Source: a virus (Duplodnaviria > Heunggongvirae > Uroviricota > Caudoviricetes). Taken from it: 8,473 nt of DNA. The notes beneath the pieces were generated by a model. That model ran no database searches. It saw only the letters and a program-made list of their open reading frames with translations, and was not told where the DNA came from. Below, in pieces: positions 1-8,033 of this stretch. Where the stretch lies: the IMG/VR virus record IMGVR_UViG_2579778666_000005; one strand, written 5' to 3'. The stretch's first letter is position 1, and each line of letters begins with the position of its first letter. A program made the position numbers and the translations under genes.

Positions 1-1
1 G

Positions 2-19
2 TAATGCCAGTCAGTTAAG
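2..19. repeat. IS4 terminal inverted repeat (end distal to the transposase start)
   Basis: taatgccagtcagttaag; matches the reverse complement of 1410..1427 (taatgccgatcagttaag) at 16 of 18 positions. Confidence 0.85.
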
Positions 20-1343
20 CAACTGACTGGCTCTTTTTCGGGGCTGTGGGGTATTTCCAGGGCCTCTCCTTTACCACTCTCGGGAAGGCCCTTTCCCTTC
101 TTGTCGGTAATTTCACAAGTTGTCCCATACTTGCAAGATCGCGCATCAGCTCCGGTATACGTCCCGGTGAAGCGCCCTGCAATGTCATCAGCATTCTCAT
201 CACCATTCCGCATGATTCTGAGAAACTCAGTTGATTCGGCCAGTAACCTTTCAGATGTTCCGCCATTTTAATCATCTGATATCTCACCAGATTATAAGCC
301 AGTAAGACACCCCACAGCTCTTGCTCCACAAGCTCCGGCTTTTTACTTCTCAGCGTCAGCCTGCTCCGTTGCATCGTCTGTTTTATCTCCCTGTATCCCA
401 GTTCGATTTCCCAGCGATGACTGTACAGATCCCCCATTTCTCCTCCGGGGAAGCGCATGGCGTCCGTCATCGACGTCAGCAGATGGCAGACTTTTCCTTT
501 GCGCGTCACGGTCAGCAGGCGGGCAGTCACTTCATTTCCCAGTCCCGGCCACTTTTTTCGTGCCTGCGGGCTGGTTTTCAGCTTCACCAGATGATCGCCT
601 TTACCCAGTTTTCTGATCTCTTCATATTGCGCTCCCTTTCTGAGAGGTATCATCCAGTGGCGGTGTTCTCCCGCCAGGCTCCAGGCATTTAACAGTCCCA
701 GTGAGTAATAACCTTTGTCCATTAACGTCAGAGTGTTATCGCCGGTTTGTTCTATAAGTTGCTCAGCAAGCTCATTTTCGCTGTTCTTCATCGTGCCGAA
801 GGCTGCAGCCGTCAGCAGATGGCTGGTCAGTTCCATCTGGCAGACCATTTTGACCTGCGGGTAGAGCGCCGGGTTCCCGGCATGTGTCTGGCGGGGGAAG
901 GCTGCATCGTTCTCTGGTGTATCCGGTGTGCGCCAGAACACACCATCGATGGCCAGCAGGGTCAGGCCGCACCAGTGCGGATGCGGCGTGGCGTTATGCC
1001 AGAGCTGCGCTGTTTTCGTGAACACGCGGCGGACAGCCTCACTTCCCAGGCGCTGGCGGGCCTGAATAACGGCACTGGGGGCAACGAAGGGGCGATTGCC
1101 CGGCAGCATGATGTCCAGGCGATTCACAATCTGGTGAAGAGGTTCTTTACGCTCAAGCGCCATGCCAACAATACACCAGACCATCATTTCGAGGGGAAGA
1201 CGGCGCTTGCGTAGCGTTACAGTACCTGATTCGGCAAGGCAACGAGAGATGAGTTCGGGGTCGAGGTAATCCCCCAGAGAAGTCAGTGGGTTACGCAGAG
1301 AATCGTAACGGGATACCAGATCAAGAGCCTGTCCAATGTGCAT
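15..1343 (-). CDS. insG: IS4 transposase (DDE family), 442 aa
   Basis: The track ORF 15..1361 begins at a TTG. The first ATG is 6 codons in (1341..1343) and gives [40 protein letters not shown]..., which is the IS4 InsG N-terminus as I recall it. Resulting length is 442 aa. Confidence 0.92.
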
Positions 1344-1409
1344 AAAAAAATCCGGAAACAAGTGAGCGTTTCCGGATTCTTACACAGCCACTGGATCGGT
1401 CAACTGATC

Positions 1410-1427
1410 CTTAACTGATCGGCATTA
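1410..1427. repeat. IS4 terminal inverted repeat (end proximal to the transposase start)
   Basis: Reverse complement taatgccgatcagttaag pairs with 2..19 (16/18). Confidence 0.85.
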
Positions 1428-1461
1428 CCTTCAAAGAGGCGGTTTATGTTATCCCATTGGA

Positions 1462-3105
1462 TTAAGATCTACATTCAACTAAAAGGTACACTAATGGACG
1501 TTCTGGCGTCCCATTCTTCTTTGCAACAAAAGCAGATATTTTGTGTTTTGCTATTTTTTGCTTGAGTTTTTTACATAACACTTTGTTTATATAACCAAGT
1601 TTCCCGCTCTCATGAACAACAGCTATAGCATGTGGATCAACCGGGTTATCCTCTTCAGGAACAAGCTTGACCAAATCACCGACCATTACTTTCGACAAAT
1701 CAAGCCCTTCCTGATAACGAGTTCCTGCCACTTCAAAAAGAAGCTCACCTTCACTATTAAGAATTTCTGGATCTGGCACCAAACAAAAACCATCGCCAGG
1801 TGATTTTGCTCCTGTATATCCTAACAGCGCAAAATCAGAGCCTTCAAATGGATGGGGGAGCAAATGTTGAGCCAGATACTCAGCAAAGTCTTTTCTTTTC
1901 CGTGGTGGTAAACGCCGAACAAACGGGTCAAGCACGTTGTTCGTATGTTCTTCACTTTTCAGACTAAATGCGGGATGTCCTGCAAACCCTTTCTCTTGGG
2001 CTTTAGCATAATCTTCTGACTGAAAATGGTATGTGAAGACGTAGTTATCCCCTTGCTGACGATCAATCTGACCAACAACATAACGAGTACCGCCTGTGGG
2101 TGGCTGCCATGTAAGAAGCAACCGAGTAGGCTCCATTATTCTGTTTATAGTACGCATATTTAGAATCAGTGATAACCTTAGGTATCTACGCCTCAATAAA
2201 CGAATCGTCCAATCCGCTCGTTCCCTAGTGAACGGCACATCGGAGCTAATTTCGCAAAGTGAATCTATCTTGTCGACCAGTTCCTGAAAATCAAATTCAA
2301 GTCTCCGGGCCAAGTACGCTTTTGACTGCTCATCAAGAGCCAAATCCTGTATAGAAGAAATATGACCTAATCGTTCATGCGTGTCTGCCCGATTCTTCCG
2401 CAAATGATGACAACCACGCTGTATGTATTCATCTACATTTTGATGGTTCCATCCTCTGATCCTCTCTACATACCTTTCATGCCCCAAACTAGTACCATTA
2501 TCGAAATATGGTGCGAGATATCCCTTCACTTTAGGTGGCGTTATGCCTGGTGCAGATTCAGGTACAAAAACAAAACCCCAATTCTCTTGGTGTCTATCAC
2601 TATTACCGATGAGCGCATCAAAAAGCAGCATATCGTAAAGCCATTGGATCCAGTCTGGAGAGATCAGGCCGCGGATACTAAAAGCCCTACAAATTAAGCG
2701 TAGATCAACAAGGTTATGGTGTCTTCCGGAAGAGTCATCAAAATCCGATATCAACACATGAAAAAAATCAGACGCATGAACAAATAACTGGCTACTTTGA
2801 TCGTAAAACCACTCAAGCAAAGCTCCATATTCGTATTCACCGTTCTCCATCATTCTTCGCGCTGGCAATGCTTTAGGAACAGGAACGCCCATAACATCTC
2901 CAACTATATAAGCAACGGTTTCCATCCAGTACTGATCGGGATAAGCATCTCTTGAGAGTTTAAAAAGATAAGGCCATTCCGGTTTTATCCCCTCAGGAGC
3001 ATCATTCGGTGACCAAAGCATTTTTTTATCCCTCGCTCCTCGAGGAAAAATGCCATGCTCATCATCTTTACGCCAACTAGTTACATCTATTAAATTGATA
3101 TCCAT
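1462..3105 (-). CDS. HipA-like (PI3/4-kinase-fold) protein kinase domain fused to a C-terminal HIRAN domain, 547 aa
   Basis: ATG start at 3103..3105, TAA stop at 1462..1464. Catalytic-loop-like motif LIGNSDRHQENWGF at about residues 164-177 (GNxDxHxxN, HipA_C-like) followed by APYFDNG at about 198-204 (HipA YD-like metal-binding motif). C-terminal NPVDPHAIAVVHESGKLGYINK at about 487-508 resembles the HIRAN signature (NPxDxNAI ... G..GY). Start lies 9 nt downstream of the preceding gene's stop, so probably co-translated. Visibly AT-rich. Confidence 0.8.
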   Translation of the reverse strand: MDINLIDVTSWRKDDEHGIFPRGARDKKMLWSPNDAPEGIKPEWPYLFKLSRDAYPDQYWMETVAYIVGDVMGVPVPKALPARRMMENGEYEYGALLEWFYDQSSQLFVHASDFFHVLISDFDDSSGRHHNLVDLRLICRAFSIRGLISPDWIQWLYDMLLFDALIGNSDRHQENWGFVFVPESAPGITPPKVKGYLAPYFDNGTSLGHERYVERIRGWNHQNVDEYIQRGCHHLRKNRADTHERLGHISSIQDLALDEQSKAYLARRLEFDFQELVDKIDSLCEISSDVPFTRERADWTIRLLRRRYLRLSLILNMRTINRIMEPTRLLLTWQPPTGGTRYVVGQIDRQQGDNYVFTYHFQSEDYAKAQEKGFAGHPAFSLKSEEHTNNVLDPFVRRLPPRKRKDFAEYLAQHLLPHPFEGSDFALLGYTGAKSPGDGFCLVPDPEILNSEGELLFEVAGTRYQEGLDLSKVMVGDLVKLVPEEDNPVDPHAIAVVHESGKLGYINKVLCKKLKQKIAKHKISAFVAKKNGTPERPLVYLLVECRS

Positions 3106-3114
3106 ATCTTACGG

Positions 3115-3666
3115 TTACCCAGCTAATGCACGGAAAGCAGCACTAACATAAGCTACCTGAAACTTTGCATCTCGAAGCGCATGATGCGCATCAGTAACAT
3201 TAATGGAAAAATTTGCCCTTACATCAATATTCTTAAGGCTTTTAGCTAGTTCAACGATGGTACGCACGTCTCGATCATTTCGAAAACGCCATGGGATATT
3301 TTGCGCATGTTTACGGTAAACCGCTGCCAATATAGCGTTATCAAAGCTTGCCCCATTCCCCCAAACTTGTACGTCATCGTTACTACGACTTCGTACAAAT
3401 AGAGAAAATTCTTGTAAGGCTTCATGTAAGTCAACAGCAGACGGGTCATTAAAAACCGCCCTTGCAGAATCGCTTTGTATCATCCACCACTGTAAAGTTT
3501 TTGGGTCTACAAAACTATTTTCCAATGCAGATGATAGGGTTATAACTCTATAAAACTCATCCCCACACTTGCCAGTCAGAGGCTCAAAGAACACAGCGCC
3601 GATTGAAATCAAAGGAGCATCCATTGACACACCTAATGTTTCTATATCGAGCATTAAATTATTCAT
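3115..3666 (-). CDS. DEDDh-family 3'-5' exonuclease (DnaQ/RNase T-like), 183 aa
   Basis: ATG at 3664..3666 preceded by a strong SD (ggaggttaa ATG). All three exo motifs are present: Exo I LDIETLG (D8, E10), Exo II GNGASFDNAIL (D109), Exo III HHALRDA (H161-x4-D166). Stop TAA at 3115..3117. Confidence 0.82.
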   Translation of the reverse strand: MNNLMLDIETLGVSMDAPLISIGAVFFEPLTGKCGDEFYRVITLSSALENSFVDPKTLQWWMIQSDSARAVFNDPSAVDLHEALQEFSLFVRSRSNDDVQVWGNGASFDNAILAAVYRKHAQNIPWRFRNDRDVRTIVELAKSLKNIDVRANFSINVTDAHHALRDAKFQVAYVSAAFRALAG

Positions 3667-3806
3667 TTAACCTCCACCCCAGACATAGCTCAGGGAAACG
3701 TAACCTATTGAAATAACGAATCAAGTATTTGTCACATTCTATACTAAAACATTCGAATTCCAAAACTTCAGCTTTTGCAACCCCTTACAAGTCAATTGAT
3801 CCATAA

Positions 3807-3826
3807 TACTGTATACATACACAGTA
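3807..3826. promoter_or_regulatory. LexA (SOS) box in the intergenic region between gene A and the exonuclease/kinase cassette
   Basis: tactgtatacatacacagta matches the E. coli LexA consensus TACTG(TA)5CAGTA at 18/20, with CTG and CAG separated by 10 nt. It lies about 140 nt upstream of the exonuclease ATG on the coding side. Flanking sigma70 hexamers are ambiguous: TTGACT at 3790..3795 and TAGAAT near 3737..3742 are both plausible pieces but not correctly spaced with each other. Confidence 0.7.
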
Positions 3827-3844
3827 CTACATTTGAAAAACAAA

Positions 3845-6121
3845 TCAAGGGAAATCATTAAAACCCGGCCAATCACAACAAGGCGGATAAACAAATTTTT
3901 TCATGTCATAAATAACTTCTGCCCCACGAGCCAGCGCCTCAAGCTCCCATCTCTGAGGCCTGATACCGTTCTGAGCAAGGTCAACGCGGATACGGGTGAT
4001 TTGCAATCGTTCAGACCGGGTCAGTCTGGCCGATGGTGCAATTTCATGCGGTTTTAACGGGCTTCCGTTTCTTTGCTGACGGTTTGGTCTTCTCAGGCCG
4101 TATTTTAATGCACCTCTGAGCGCCCTCACGACCTCCGGGTCATTCCATTCGATAACACCGTCATCAACCAGATTAAGCACTGCTGCGGCGTGCTCAGAAG
4201 GTTTGGGAGCCGTTAACGAAGTATCACTGCCGGTGAACTTTCCACAGTTATTGACAGGACTCCGAGGCGCGGCGATGCCGCTTTTTAAAGTCAAAGGCTC
4301 AACGACCGGAACTTTCGGCACAATGCGCCAGTCCGTCGTTCTGGTGATATGAATATGACGCGCGCCGAGATGCGGCGCGTAAATGCCGACCACTCTCTCG
4401 ACTTCTTCCTCGTACTCGTTAACGTCATCCGACGGGCTACGGGCGACTCTGACAGTCTGACAATCGCGCGGAACATTTGCCCCACCCTGCGCGCTGATAT
4501 ACAACGCAAAATCACCACTGTCTGCGGCAGCGCGAGCAGCCTCGACGCGTTCGTCAAACTCATCAGCAATACTGACGCCGCGAGGCAATTTGCGTAGTTC
4601 ACGGTAAGCCCCCATTGTCGGCAGTCCAACCGTTTTAAATTGCGGGATGCGCCACGTTGACGCCCATGCGGTAACAGCCGCGGCAGTATCTTTAAGCGGC
4701 TTACCGGTATCGTTATCGAGCTGACCATCCAGTGCATAGCCGTCGATATTTTTTGAAATGTATTTCGCGATATATCCCGCAGCACCGCCCCGGTTAAGGT
4801 GTTTTGCCTGAAAACGGTTTCGCGCGGCTCCTCTTTCGTCGCCATCCTCTTTGAGCGCATAGCGACGCATGATTTCAATAATCTGGTTACGCTGGCGTGG
4901 ATTACAAAAAAGCATCATATGCCAGTGCGGCGTTCCGTCGTGGTGTGGTTCAACAACACGCAAACCGTAGGCCTGTAAATCATTATCCTTGAATGCCGTG
5001 CGCATCAGGCTCCAGATACGGCAGAGATAACGCTGCGCATCCTTTGGATTAAATGCCTCATCATTCCAGCCGTGATTTAGCTGGACGGTTTTACTTTCGC
5101 CTTTTCTGACCTGACGTGTCGGGTGATACTTTGACGGCGCGGTCAGCGTGATAAACATCCCCACATCACCCTCTGCGGCAGCGTAACGCTCAATACCGGC
5201 GATGGTGTTCATCAGCTCCATCCGGCGAATTTCTGGATTAGAAATACTGCCCATCACCTTACTGATAAGGTCGATGCGCTCGCCGGTTTCCCTGTTTTCA
5301 AGGTCACACGATTTAAGAAATTCCAGATTTGCCTGGCGGCGCGCACGCACATCACGAATGGCATGTTTACTGGCATAAGGAGAACGGTCTTTATTGACCT
5401 CCCCGACAGCAATCAGTAACGCCTCATGCCAGCGCATACGCTGGCCTTTAAGCTGATGAGTCCACCATTCATCGTTAAACAGACGGGCAATGGCAGAATA
5501 TGCCTGCCTCGTGGTCATCTGCCCTTTACGGTATTTTTTCCAGTAGAGCGGAGAAATATTGAAAGCACGTGCAGCGCCAGCAACATGACCATAGAGGTGA
5601 GCCTGCGCCTCATCCGTAAACAGCGATTCTTTTTCGCCATGCGCATCCACCCAGGCATCGCAGAGTTCCTCATACATCATGAAAAGCTGCGATGAGATAC
5701 GGGCGGCAAACTTTTTCAGCTCCTTATCATTCATCCCCGGCAGACGCGCATAATGGTCACGCTCTGCCAGAAACAGCAACGACGCGTCGGTGTTCATTTC
5801 ATGGCGCTGATTCACACGCTCAATGCGCGGCCATAAACGACGCTGAAAAGTGGATGTGAGGAAATAAAACCCGTGCACCGGGCTTTTATTGCGCCGGATG
5901 TAGTCATAGCGTGAAGTAAACAGCGAGCGCAAAAAGTAAGGCAGGCGGTTAATCGTGGATAAAACACCTTGCACCTGACGCATCTCGTCACGTGTAAGGG
6001 GTCTTTCGCGCCCGACGGCCTCGCGTGGCGCGTTCCATGCATAAGCACCGGTAAACGTCTTACCGGTGCCTGCGGCAAATGCTGACGGAGGGACAAAACG
6101 CCCGGAGGCTTTAACGGCCAT
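3845..6121 (-). CDS. A: P2-type replication initiation endonuclease gpA (HUH rolling-circle Rep), about 758 aa
   Basis: HUH motif PHWHMMLF (codons for HWH at 4919..4927) and a double-tyrosine motif GYIAKYISK (Tyr codons at 4772..4774 and 4760..4762). N-terminus MAVKASGRFVPPSAF... from the ATG at 6119..6121 matches my recollection of P2 gpA. The track start at 6163 is a TTG that would overlap the upstream gene by more than 50 nt; I prefer the ATG. Confidence 0.88.
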   Translation of the reverse strand: MAVKASGRFVPPSAFAAGTGKTFTGAYAWNAPREAVGRERPLTRDEMRQVQGVLSTINRLPYFLRSLFTSRYDYIRRNKSPVHGFYFLTSTFQRRLWPRIERVNQRHEMNTDASLLFLAERDHYARLPGMNDKELKKFAARISSQLFMMYEELCDAWVDAHGEKESLFTDEAQAHLYGHVAGAARAFNISPLYWKKYRKGQMTTRQAYSAIARLFNDEWWTHQLKGQRMRWHEALLIAVGEVNKDRSPYASKHAIRDVRARRQANLEFLKSCDLENRETGERIDLISKVMGSISNPEIRRMELMNTIAGIERYAAAEGDVGMFITLTAPSKYHPTRQVRKGESKTVQLNHGWNDEAFNPKDAQRYLCRIWSLMRTAFKDNDLQAYGLRVVEPHHDGTPHWHMMLFCNPRQRNQIIEIMRRYALKEDGDERGAARNRFQAKHLNRGGAAGYIAKYISKNIDGYALDGQLDNDTGKPLKDTAAAVTAWASTWRIPQFKTVGLPTMGAYRELRKLPRGVSIADEFDERVEAARAAADSGDFALYISAQGGANVPRDCQTVRVARSPSDDVNEYEEEVERVVGIYAPHLGARHIHITRTTDWRIVPKVPVVEPLTLKSGIAAPRSPVNNCGKFTGSDTSLTAPKPSEHAAAVLNLVDDGVIEWNDPEVVRALRGALKYGLRRPNRQQRNGSPLKPHEIAPSARLTRSERLQITRIRVDLAQNGIRPQRWELEALARGAEVIYDMKKFVYPPCCDWPGFNDFP

Positions 6122-6386
6122 ATGAGCCAAAAGCCTCTGAACAACGCTTGCTGAGTTGCTCAACCTGCGCGTTTAAATCAGCAAAAGACTTTGCGCTTCC
6201 GGTCAGAATATCGTGATGCATCAGGCCGGAAACAAGCTGGCTTAATTTCGGGTAATAACCAACCACCGCCAGCCATTCCTGACCGGCGTTTTTACCGCTT
6301 TCCGCTCTCTTTTTCTCGTGGAGAATAAACTGGAAGCTGTCACTGGTAACGACATAACGTTCGCCAATTTCAATACGAATACTCAT
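6111..6386 (-). CDS. Small conserved early-operon protein, 91 aa; by position the P2 orf83 equivalent
   Basis: ATG start with a GGAG SD 7 nt upstream; ATGA start/stop overlap with the upstream ORF; its 3' end overlaps the gene A start. Function unknown. Confidence 0.7.
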   Translation of the reverse strand: MSIRIEIGERYVVTSDSFQFILHEKKRAESGKNAGQEWLAVVGYYPKLSQLVSGLMHHDILTGSAKSFADLNAQVEQLSKRCSEAFGSYGR

Positions 6387-6607
6387 GCCGTTCTCCGGTA
6401 ATGTTTGTTTTTTGCTTCAAAGACTGACTGACAGGAAACACAACGCGTGGCTGACGGATAAGCCGCACGACGGGCAGCAGGTATTGGCGCGTCACACTCT
6501 TCGCAAACCAGCGCAGAAGCACCGCAATGTTTACCCCTTGCCGCGTTAATCTGGCGCTCCAGTAATTCAGCCTGTTGTTCCTGAATAAAATCTACGTTGT
6601 CCGGCAT
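6383..6607 (-). CDS. TraR/DksA-family C4 zinc-finger protein, 74 aa; by position the P2 orf82 equivalent
   Basis: CxxC-x17-CxxC (CEECDAPIPAARRAAYPSATRCVSC) in a short protein with an acidic N-terminal helix; strong SD (aaggag) 7 nt upstream of the ATG. Confidence 0.75.
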   Translation of the reverse strand: MPDNVDFIQEQQAELLERQINAARGKHCGASALVCEECDAPIPAARRAAYPSATRCVSCQSVFEAKNKHYRRTA

Positions 6608-6609
6608 TA

Positions 6610-6909
6610 TCAGCTCCTTTTATCGTTAAGTTTCCTGGATACATCAGCGCAATAACTGGCGAGTTCTGTCGTTAATTTTGTCAGTTCATCCACTGAGGAA
6701 ATTTGCTTGTGGAATACAGCGCGTTTAACAAGTAAATTGACCACATCAGACAGGAGGTTTAATTCATTCTGATAAATCGCGATAACAGATTCAGTGATGT
6801 CGCGTTTTTCTTTATCAAGACAAAGTTGAATAAGAGACAAATCGCCATTTTCCATAACGGCGATTTTTAAGGCGTTATTCAGTAATACAACTGAATGAGA
6901 ACAGGACAT
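6610..6909 (-). CDS. Hypothetical early-operon protein, 99 aa; by position the P2 orf81 equivalent
   Basis: The track start at 6912 is TTG. The adjacent ATG at 6907..6909 has a GGAGG SD about 9 nt upstream and overlaps the upstream stop (TGATG). Confidence 0.65.
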   Translation of the reverse strand: MSCSHSVVLLNNALKIAVMENGDLSLIQLCLDKEKRDITESVIAIYQNELNLLSDVVNLLVKRAVFHKQISSVDELTKLTTELASYCADVSRKLNDKRS

Positions 6910-7133
6910 CAAAGTACCTCCCCACGAGACAATCCGATATTGTGAAATTTTTCCGACTCCTGACTGAGCAGCTCGACTATCTCCACGCGGGATAACTCCG
7001 CCTTTGTGATGTGGCGAATCATGGCGTCAAGATGAGAAGAAAAGCGCGTCGCAGCGTCAGCCTGTGCTTCGGTTCTGGCCTGTTGCAGCAGTAATGCGTA
7101 TTTACCGCACTGATTTTCAGAAACTGTATGCAT
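6909..7133 (-). CDS. Hypothetical early-operon protein, 74 aa; by position the P2 orf80 equivalent
   Basis: ATG at 7131..7133 with a GGAG SD 8 nt upstream; same strand and operon context. Confidence 0.65.
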
Positions 7134-7196
7134 AATTTTCTCCAGGCAAAAAGAAGCCCCGCACGATTAAGTGCGTTTAAAACTCTGGTTAATTAT

Positions 7197-7697
7197 TTAA
7201 TGCAGATATTGCTCTGGTTTTACCGACGTCAGAATTGTCGGTGCATACTCAAACAGGCTGAATAATTCACGTAATGCACGGAATAAAGCATCACGCCAGT
7301 AACATGACTCTTCATTAATTCGCCAGTATGGCTGGTTGAATTCTTTTTCAGTCAATCCGGCATGCATAAATAAAGTACGACGCTGACTGACTGTTAAAAA
7401 ACTAATATATGCATACTCACTTGCGCCAACCTGACGGCGTTTTGAGAATGCCCCACGCAATTCATCAATTGCACAAACCAGCCGTTCACGTTCGACGTCG
7501 TTCATTTCTTCAAAACGCATCGTTGCATGACGTTGTTTTAACTGCGCATGAAAGCAAACCGTTAGCCGTTCGCGTTCCATCATCTGATTATAATAATCAC
7601 ATGTATCCTGCCAGCGAGGGACGGCCAGATGCTTACCAATTATCCGGCGCATAGCTGCTGGCTGTTTTTCAACGAGATTAAGCGTCATCACTGTCAT
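7197..7697 (-). CDS. B: P2 gpB-like replication protein (helicase-loader role in P2), 166 aa
   Basis: Length 166 aa and N-terminus MTVMTLNLVEKQPAAMRRIIGKHLAVPRWQD... match my recollection of P2 gpB. GGAGGG SD 9 nt upstream; ATGA overlap with the upstream ORF. Confidence 0.8.
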   Translation of the reverse strand: MTVMTLNLVEKQPAAMRRIIGKHLAVPRWQDTCDYYNQMMERERLTVCFHAQLKQRHATMRFEEMNDVERERLVCAIDELRGAFSKRRQVGASEYAYISFLTVSQRRTLFMHAGLTEKEFNQPYWRINEESCYWRDALFRALRELFSLFEYAPTILTSVKPEQYLH

Positions 7698-7864
7698 TTC
7701 CAGACCCTCCGGCTTTTCAGAAAGGTCAGAGCCTTCTTTAACGGACTCTGTTTTTTGGTGCGGATAATGATTCCCTTGCGTCCCTTCCCGTGGGTGATGG
7801 TGAAGTCAATCGCCCTGGGGCTTTCGTTACGCAGTAACTGAGCAATACAACGCGGTTCACTCAT
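7694..7864 (-). CDS. Small basic protein, 56 aa from the ATG at 7864 (65 aa if 7891 is used); by position possibly the P2 orf78 equivalent
   Basis: Lys/Arg-rich C-terminus. The ATG at 7862..7864 overlaps the stop of the truncated upstream ORF (ATGAGTGA), typical of translational coupling. The ATG at 7891 has no SD and an in-frame stop just upstream. Confidence 0.5.
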   Translation of the reverse strand: MSEPRCIAQLLRNESPRAIDFTITHGKGRKGIIIRTKKQSPLKKALTFLKSRRVWK

Positions 7865-8033
7865 AATCACAACCCCATCCACAAAAGCCATGCATCACGC
7901 TGTTCAACTGGTCGGTTATAAAACGCCTCTCGTACAGCGCGATTAAACTCTGGAATGAAAACCCACTTCTCACCGACACGGGCGTTCGGCTTACTTGGAT
8001 CACGAAGCTCAATAACTGGCAATTTATTCTCTT
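7857..8033 (-). pseudogene. 3' fragment (58 codons plus stop) of an early-operon gene truncated by the IS629-like insertion; possibly a cox-like first gene
   Basis: One minus-strand frame is open from the IS junction (8033) to a TGA at 7857..7859, giving KRINCQLLSFVIQVSRTPVSVRSGFSFQSLIALYERRFITDQLNSVMHGFCGWGCDYE*. It has no start codon in the prophage-derived sequence. The sequence does not match my recollection of P2 Cox, so identity is uncertain. Confidence 0.4.

Follow-up and report, generated by a model that had tools for sequence, protein, structure and literature searches.

The 8,473-nucleotide stretch of DNA of the virus record IMGVR_UViG_2579778666_000005 (Caudoviricetes), the whole of which is referred to here as the window, carries hipL, a gene predicted to encode a Hip-type kinase with a C-terminal HIRAN domain, together with a gene for a DEDDh 3'-5' exonuclease that lies directly upstream. 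It is near certain that these two genes form a two-gene cargo operon within the gpA-gpQ hotspot, in a P2-like prophage. As a whole, the operon is best explained as a phage-defence module in which the kinase would be gated by DNA 3' ends and the exonuclease would serve as its partner; its role is inferred, and we regard the chances that this explanation is right as about even. The domain architecture (2021), the status of the PADLOC system PDC-M03 as a defence candidate and the exact P2-borne pair (2022) are already known. Added by the current analysis are the evidence for the competence of the kinase, the partnership with the exonuclease at the level of a clade and a parallel association with DEDD nucleases in Gram-positive bacteria, which together supply a concrete hypothesis for experiments.

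The original prediction, which was made from the DNA and its translated open reading frames, described the hipL product as an unusual fusion of a HipA/PI3-4-kinase-like core with a C-terminal HIRAN domain. The fusion of a HipA-fold kinase core and a HIRAN domain is borne out by Pfam and PADLOC matches, fold matches and invariant motifs. Pfam HipA_C is found at residues 23-206 (E 1e-5, 25.8 bits), which is under the gathering score of 30.5, while Pfam HIRAN (PF08797) is found at residues 453-525 (E 1.4e-10, 41.2 bits; cut-off 24.7). The two-domain reading holds for the kinase and HIRAN domains that it named and falls short in the middle of the protein, where it missed a HipS-like domain that is matched by Pfam Couple_hipA, the HipA N-terminal subdomain, at residues 343-437 (26.7 bits; cut-off 22.5). 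The PADLOC models PDC-M03A and PDC-M03B span residues 4-308 (E 3.8e-31) and 325-545 (E 1e-30), respectively. The AlphaFold2 model of HipL, which draws on 109 homologues, is confident over the full length (predicted local distance difference test, pLDDT, 94; predicted template modelling score, pTM, 0.93). Fold matches were obtained with this predicted structure for all three domains, including the kinase and HIRAN folds that the original prediction had expected, and the domain order is kinase core, HipS-like domain and HIRAN domain. HipL is 100% identical to the protein cluster P0001 with its 422 member sequences, and full-length homologues reach down to ~40% identity in Enterobacterales and Aeromonas. 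Residue conservation was assessed in an alignment of 20 full-length HipL homologues that are 40-89% identical. The four motifs on which the original prediction was built, LIGNSDRHQEN, APYFD, NPVDPHAIAV and GKLGY, are all located in the hipL open reading frame, and the Pfam and PADLOC support and the invariance of D170, H172, N175, D202, N487 and D490 argue that they are not chance matches.

There is clear evidence that the kinase of HipL is catalytically competent. G23, R25, K27 and K49 are invariant in the 20 homologues, as are D163, the entire I-G-N-x-D-R-H-Q-E-N-W-G loop and D202-N-G-T-S-L-G. The Gly-rich loop of HipA comprises residues 151-156, and Ser150 is the site of autophosphorylation (PMC10627512). 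In the Hip kinases without N-subdomain-1, the Gly-rich loop is expected near the N-terminus (PMC8262856). The hhalign comparison of the HipL profile with residues 141-221 of Escherichia coli HipA gives a weak local alignment (E 0.015), which sets FPRGARDKK of HipL on S150-VAGAQEK157 of HipA and K49 on K181. The start of the Pfam model, the fold matches and the invariant residues agree with this alignment, which is used for that reason only. At the position of HipA Ser150 stands F20, a nearly invariant residue in the homologues. No glycine-rich loop had been noticed when the protein was first described, and a pseudokinase had been considered possible; FPRGARDKK, with its invariant G23, R25 and K27, speaks against that suggestion. 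The Pfam HipA_C score below the gathering threshold and the lack of a Walker-type P-loop would be in keeping with HipL being a pseudokinase or a non-catalytic scaffold. Because a Hip-type Gly-rich loop is present at the N-terminus and the kinase motifs are invariant, the pseudokinase idea is not supported; with all the mapped kinase motifs conserved in the 20 homologues it was rejected, and we consider it highly improbable. The remark that the catalytic loop contains a DRH triad was correct: HipA has DGH (GATDGHAKN), while HipL and CtkA of Helicobacter pylori share GN-x-DRH-x-x-NWGF (GNFDRHNGN in CtkA). The HipA counterpart of the Mg2+-binding motif of HipL is TPFYD. Membership in the PI3/PI4-kinases was rejected by the ranking of the fold matches, in which the closest relatives are not lipid kinases.

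HLTF and Lp_0118 are matched by the HIRAN domain of HipL in profile and in fold. Its segments VAGTRYQ and DNPVDPHAI align to VVGLRYY and NNPYDKNAI of HLTF, respectively, and R463, Y464, N487 and D490 are invariant in the homologues. Judged from these alignments, HipL retains the G-x-R-Y and N-P-x-D motifs, which we take, as Gerdes et al. also do, to be the HLTF residues that touch the DNA 3' end. HIRAN domains bind DNA 3' ends.

The upstream gene encodes a nuclease, as had been predicted for the partner of hipL. Its product matches Pfam PF16473 (Rv2179c-like; E 7e-57, 192.4 bits; cut-off 27) as well as PHROG 255 "exonuclease," and its DEDDh catalytic residues D7, E9, D109, H161 and D166 are invariant in nine homologues. 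When the exonuclease profile was compared with the Protein Data Bank (PDB), the sole match at E<=0.01 was 8kel, the DexA of phage T4 (3.6e-14). The stop codon of the exonuclease gene is 9 nucleotides ahead of the hipL ATG. A GGAGG sequence precedes the ATG of the exonuclease gene, and a promoter candidate is found ~70 nucleotides upstream of this ATG. An absence of the usual HipB partner had also been foreseen, and no helix-turn-helix (HTH) gene is found in the operon.

The conservation of the pair was analysed in a one-genome-per-species scan, in which 230 stretches encode HipL relatives. The best 80 loci were analysed, with the contigs of individual homologues added to this set. A split form, in which a kinase gene is followed by a HipS-HIRAN gene, mostly with 4-nucleotide overlaps, is found in ~74 of the 78 genome loci. 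The fused form occurs in only three of the best 80 loci, which are those of Serratia, an unclassified Pseudomonadota metagenome-assembled genome and Atlantibacter and are the closest relatives of the query; one further fused gene, from Aeromonas, was obtained by a separate look-up. The exonuclease gene is found directly upstream of the Hip gene in nine distinct loci, either within ~20 nucleotides or overlapping, and its Hip partner is fused in some of them and split in others. Among its genomic contexts are P2-type hotspots (in Serratia, Atlantibacter and others), the chromosome beside ahpCF (Proteus), the vicinity of groESL next to an IS3-type transposase gene (Shewanella, where the Hip genes are split), the edge of a prophage beside an integrase gene (Aeromonas veronii, with Hip genes that are likewise split) and one more that is unrelated to those named. 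Identity to the query drops in parallel, from 89 to 46% for the exonuclease and from 86 to 48% for the kinase, and in a neighbour-joining tree of the kinase cores, which was built without support values, all the exonuclease-linked loci are in a single clade. These results show that, within a single gammaproteobacterial clade, the exonuclease has been conserved as an operon partner of the Hip genes and has diverged along with them, across no fewer than four genomic settings. A hidden Markov model (HMM) built from the nine exonuclease homologues, run over the 80 loci with the HMMER speed filters off, found no additional copies. When the flanking open reading frames were clustered, the recurrent neighbours were subunits of type I restriction-modification systems and P2 genes; no other partner recurred.

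Several of these loci have features of their own. A fused HipL homologue of Aeromonas salmonicida (locus L082, positions 5001-6617; 41% identity) stands alone between a cI-like repressor gene and a prophage integrase gene. In the neighbour-joining tree this fusion is separate from the other fused genes, and the hipL fusion may have arisen more than once. Among the 80 loci, 11-12 split hipI-hipN loci (L017-L044; e.g., L018, 4626-5966, and L022, 3124-4590) directly adjoin HsdS- and HsdM-like genes and so lie within or beside type I restriction-modification operons, a neighbourhood that is a typical defence-island signature. In Proteus mirabilis (locus L084), a 43-amino-acid Ogr/Delta fragment (4115-4246) lies just upstream of the exonuclease-hipL pair by ahpCF, which suggests that the pair was left there by a decayed P2/P4-type element. 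Adjacent genes for HipA-domain and HIRAN-domain proteins with 26% identity to the query are present in the temperate Clostridioides phage phiCDKH02 (PP767789.1, 1559-2587), so the split module is phage-borne in Firmicutes too.

An association of Hip and HIRAN genes with a DEDD nuclease has also been reported from Gram-positive bacteria, where genes for HipA-domain and HIRAN proteins adjoin one in three diDNase genes (NrnC type) of Actinomycetes and Clostridia (Mortensen et al., 2025, Nucleic Acids Research; PMC11706625). As in the window, a small DEDD 3'-5' nuclease gene directly adjoins HipA-domain and HIRAN genes in these clusters, which are carried by mobile elements. The diDNases are NrnC homologues, whereas the exonuclease described here is of the DexA/Rv2179c type, and the two associations with Hip/HIRAN genes therefore appear to be independent recruitments. 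Placement of the exonuclease in the same family as the diDNases found no support, as its profile finds only T4 DexA at E<=0.01; nothing named NrnC or diDNase was found in the PDB at E<=1, a search in which the presence of such chains in that database was not verified. Because two unrelated DEDD lineages accompany HIRAN-Hip kinases, a functional link of these kinases to short single-stranded DNA (ssDNA) is plausible, if speculative.

HipS is the antitoxin in HipBST. By analogy, we propose that in an uninfected cell HipL's HipS-like domain would keep the kinase inactive in cis, in the manner of HipS with HipT. HipS blocks HipT by placing Trp65 against the Gly-rich loop (PMC10627512). Infection by a competing phage would give rise to free 3'-OH ssDNA ends or short DNA fragments, whose binding by the HIRAN domain would free the kinase. 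That the HIRAN domain may detect the ends of phage DNA and switch the kinase on was proposed by Gerdes et al. (PMC8262856). The freed kinase may then phosphorylate an essential target, which by analogy could be an aminoacyl-tRNA synthetase, given that other Hip kinases arrest translation via these enzymes (PMC8262856). The resulting halt of translation would abort the infection. The exonuclease would trim or remove 3' ends and in this way set the threshold of activation; less likely, it would make the ligand. A broader idea, to which we attach a low but appreciable probability, is that 3'-OH ssDNA down to oligo- and dinucleotides is an alarm that is read by HIRAN-Hip kinases and erased by the DEDD exonuclease of the operon, with DexA-type enzymes in Gammaproteobacteria and NrnC-type enzymes in Actinomycetes and Clostridia having been recruited independently. 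If this is true, the pair would be an immune circuit of "signal plus signal-clearing enzyme" built on DNA breakdown products. HipL is one of several predicted families of Hip kinases that have never been characterised, and activation of a kinase by DNA ends would introduce a new principle of sensing, both for toxin-type kinases and for prophage-encoded immunity.

The gpA-gpQ interval of P2-like prophages is a hotspot of anti-phage cargo, and P2 hotspots frequently carry more than one system (Rousset et al., 2022, Cell Host Microbe; PMC9122126). A role in defence is suggested by the position of the pair in this interval of a P2-like prophage, by its lower G+C content (0.41-0.42 vs. 0.525 for gene A), by the matches of both halves of HipL to PDC-M03, by the split homologues that adjoin hsdS/hsdM genes and by the defence roles since validated for HipA-family kinases that have other architectures. 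The pair itself appears in the work of Rousset et al. as the entry "DUF5051 + HIRAN, WP_001774096 + WP_001774097" of Table S5A and as plasmid pFR108, "Exonuclease + HipA," which was cloned from a P2 prophage of E. coli TA255 (PMC9122126). In L001, the prophage that matches the window, the exonuclease is annotated as WP_001774096, and positions 1428-1485 of the window, including the final hipL codons, are reproduced without change at the end of the pFR108 insert. The accession WP_023253881 is absent from the supplements of both Gerdes et al. and Rousset et al.

A number of results weigh against the interpretation as a DNA-3'-end-gated defence module. When eight additional P2 systems were challenged with eight phages, three were protective and the exonuclease + HipA pair was not among them (PMC9122126); we infer that pFR108 was negative on this eight-phage panel, which Rousset et al. 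do not state explicitly. Our literature searches turned up no experiments on HipL, HipIN or PDC-M03. Both the target of the kinase and the direction of the exonuclease effect are pure conjecture, and because F20 replaces the serine that is autophosphorylated in HipA, the regulation of HipL is predicted to differ from that of HipA. The exonuclease is absent from ~70 more distant hipIN loci (tblastn, 80 genome loci) and from the locus of the fused hipL in A. salmonicida, so it is not needed family-wide. A role for the exonuclease as a universal third component of hipIN/hipL was rejected, as it is present only in the clade nearest the query.

In another reading, the exonuclease and HipL would be independent cargo, neighbours by chance, and HipL would act alone. 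The family has been described as monocistronic (PMC8262856), and more than one system is often found in P2 hotspots; these points, together with the hipIN and A. salmonicida loci just mentioned, would fit such an arrangement. The linkage, however, is tight (within ~20 nucleotides or overlapping in the nine loci) and has been kept over 46-89% exonuclease identity, whether the Hip genes are fused or split, and across no fewer than four contexts. This, the parallel divergence of the two proteins and the diDNases that independently adjoin HipA/HIRAN genes in one third of cases argue for the exonuclease as a true partner, and chance neighbourhood is in our view unlikely. It is doubtful, too, that the pair is an addiction, stress or persistence module, in which a growth-arresting toxin kinase, restrained by the HipS-like domain in cis and/or by the exonuclease, would stabilise the prophage or promote dormancy of the lysogen. 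Toxin-antitoxin function and persistence are the classical roles of the Hip family (PMC8262856, PMC10627512), and the sole published test of the pair that was found reports, as we read it, no defence. A fused toxin-antitoxin polypeptide, on the other hand, cannot exploit a difference in stability between two proteins, no obvious role would be left for the HIRAN domain, and the hotspot, the embedding among restriction-modification genes and the PADLOC context favour defence.

The pair may also be an accessory that benefits the phage in DNA metabolism or counter-defence, acting on rolling-circle intermediates of P2 or on host or competitor DNA, with the kinase modifying some factor of the host or of the phage. 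Its position directly downstream of the nicking replication protein gpA would suit this role, and the exonuclease family, which includes T4 DexA, is very common in phage genomes, being seen in 686 phage records of both lytic and temperate phages. Such an account is nevertheless improbable, given that the pair occurs outside prophages too, that the split homologues are mostly chromosomal, many of them beside type I restriction-modification genes, and that only 61 of the 5,426 complete E. coli genomes carry the pair (at 100% identity), a pattern that exchangeable cargo typically shows and a replication function does not. Defence gated by DNA 3' ends remains the explanation that we prefer. The features of the window are listed in Table 1.

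Table 1. Annotated features of the window (position 1 is its first nucleotide; residue numbers are those of HipL)
Feature	Position	Strand	Basis or remark
hipL, 547-amino-acid three-domain protein	1462..3105	-	open reading frame with ATG start; Pfam and PADLOC matches
Hip/CtkA-type Ser/Thr kinase core, ~residues 1-315	2161..3105	-	
Gly-rich (ATP-binding) loop FPRGARDKK, residues 20-28	3022..3048	-	hhalign to E. coli HipA; invariant residues
Catalytic loop LIGNSDRHQEN, residues 165-175	2581..2613	-	D170, H172 and N175 invariant
Mg2+-binding motif APYFDNGTSLG, residues 198-208	2482..2514	-	D202-N-G-T-S-L-G invariant
APYFD, residues 198-202	inside 2482-2514	-	
HipS-like domain (HipA N-subdomain-1 fold), residues 322-445	1771..2142	-	invariant TWQP (W333)
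HIRAN domain, residues 453-547	1465..1749	-	
NPVDPHAIAV, residues 487-496	1618-1647	-	
GKLGY, residues 501-505	1591-1605	-	
DexA/Rv2179c-type DEDDh 3'-5' exonuclease, 183 amino acids, first operon gene	3115..3666	-	Pfam PF16473
Sigma-70-like promoter candidate TTGGAA-16-TAGAAT	3736..3763	-	consensus scan only, which is not evidence of function
hipL intrinsic terminator remnant, cut by the IS4-type element	1429..1442	-	intact prophage L001, CCGCCTCTTTGAAGGCGG then T8; window, CCGCCTCTTTGAAG abutting GTAATGCC
IS4-type element, complete	1-1428		terminal inverted repeats 1-19 and 1410-1428
IS4 transposase open reading frame, 448 amino acids	15..1361	-	IS4 N-terminal and DDE transposase domains
IS3-family orfA	starts 8088	+	

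From position 1428 to 8028, the window is collinear with L001, an intact P2-like prophage of E. coli Ecol_656 that is integrated beside cpxP, at 98.5% identity. The hipL and exonuclease genes have the replication gene A (gpA) on one side and the portal gene Q on the other. Over the segment that holds these two genes, identity to the reference prophage is 100%, vs. 98.5% across the whole 6.6 kb, and the pair is also carried, with identical genes, by two sequenced P2-like phages, Escherichia phage 899 and GMG73. The gene A region (3845-6163) is more diverged from the reference prophage. Gene A was mechanically predicted as an open reading frame of 772 amino acids with a TTG start, whereas the matching prophage is annotated with a replication endonuclease gene of 2,277 nucleotides (758 amino acids), and the true start is therefore probably internal to the 772-amino-acid frame.

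In the intact prophage, hipL is followed by a strong intrinsic terminator. The IS4-type element in the window is inserted within the hairpin of this terminator 3' of hipL, and the 3' arm and the T-tract are lost. Consequently, transcription of hipL in the window probably runs on into the IS4-type element. At the other end, collinearity with the prophage stops at 8028 within the cox gene. Insertion sequence (IS) elements thus bound the prophage segment of the window on both sides, and it may be a remnant or an IS-disrupted prophage.

The architecture that the original prediction called unusual is that of a published family. HipL, which is clade XI of the Hip kinases, was defined by bioinformatics only and described as monocistronic, and HipI/HipN was described as its split version (Gerdes, Baerentsen & Brodersen, 2021, mBio; PMC8262856). 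All the defining domains of HipL are present in the protein described here: an N-terminal Hip core kinase with the Gly-rich loop near its N-terminus, a HipS-like domain in the interior and, at the C-terminus, a HIRAN domain. As in HipL, there is no adjacent gene for a HipB HTH protein, HipS or HipN. The difference from the published description is that here, and throughout one gammaproteobacterial clade, hipL is the second gene after that of a DEDDh exonuclease. The "Exonuclease + HipA" or "DUF5051 + HIRAN" pair of Rousset et al. is the same system without any sequence difference; no activity and no domain dissection were reported for it. In the hipIN/PDC-M03 system, HipI is the kinase and HipN combines the HipS-like and HIRAN domains. 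The halves are homologous to those of HipL, and both component models are matched here, but PDC-M03, which is a candidate defence system only, consists of two adjacent genes that are fused in the window into a single open reading frame for 547 amino acids.

The differences from HipBST of E. coli O127 and Legionella and from HipBA are larger. HipB is lacking here, there is an extra HIRAN domain, the HipS-like domain follows the kinase on its C-terminal side and is covalently attached to it, an order that is permuted relative to HipA, and HipL has F20 in place of the autophosphorylated serine and DRH in place of DGH. CtkA of H. pylori (PDB 3AKJ), with which HipL shares the catalytic loop, is 19% identical to HipL and has neither the HipS-like nor the HIRAN domain. 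By its HipA_C score of 25.8 against the threshold of 30.5, its permuted domain order, the absence of HipB and F20 at the position of Ser150, HipL departs from a canonical HipA and is instead a kinase of the Hip superfamily.

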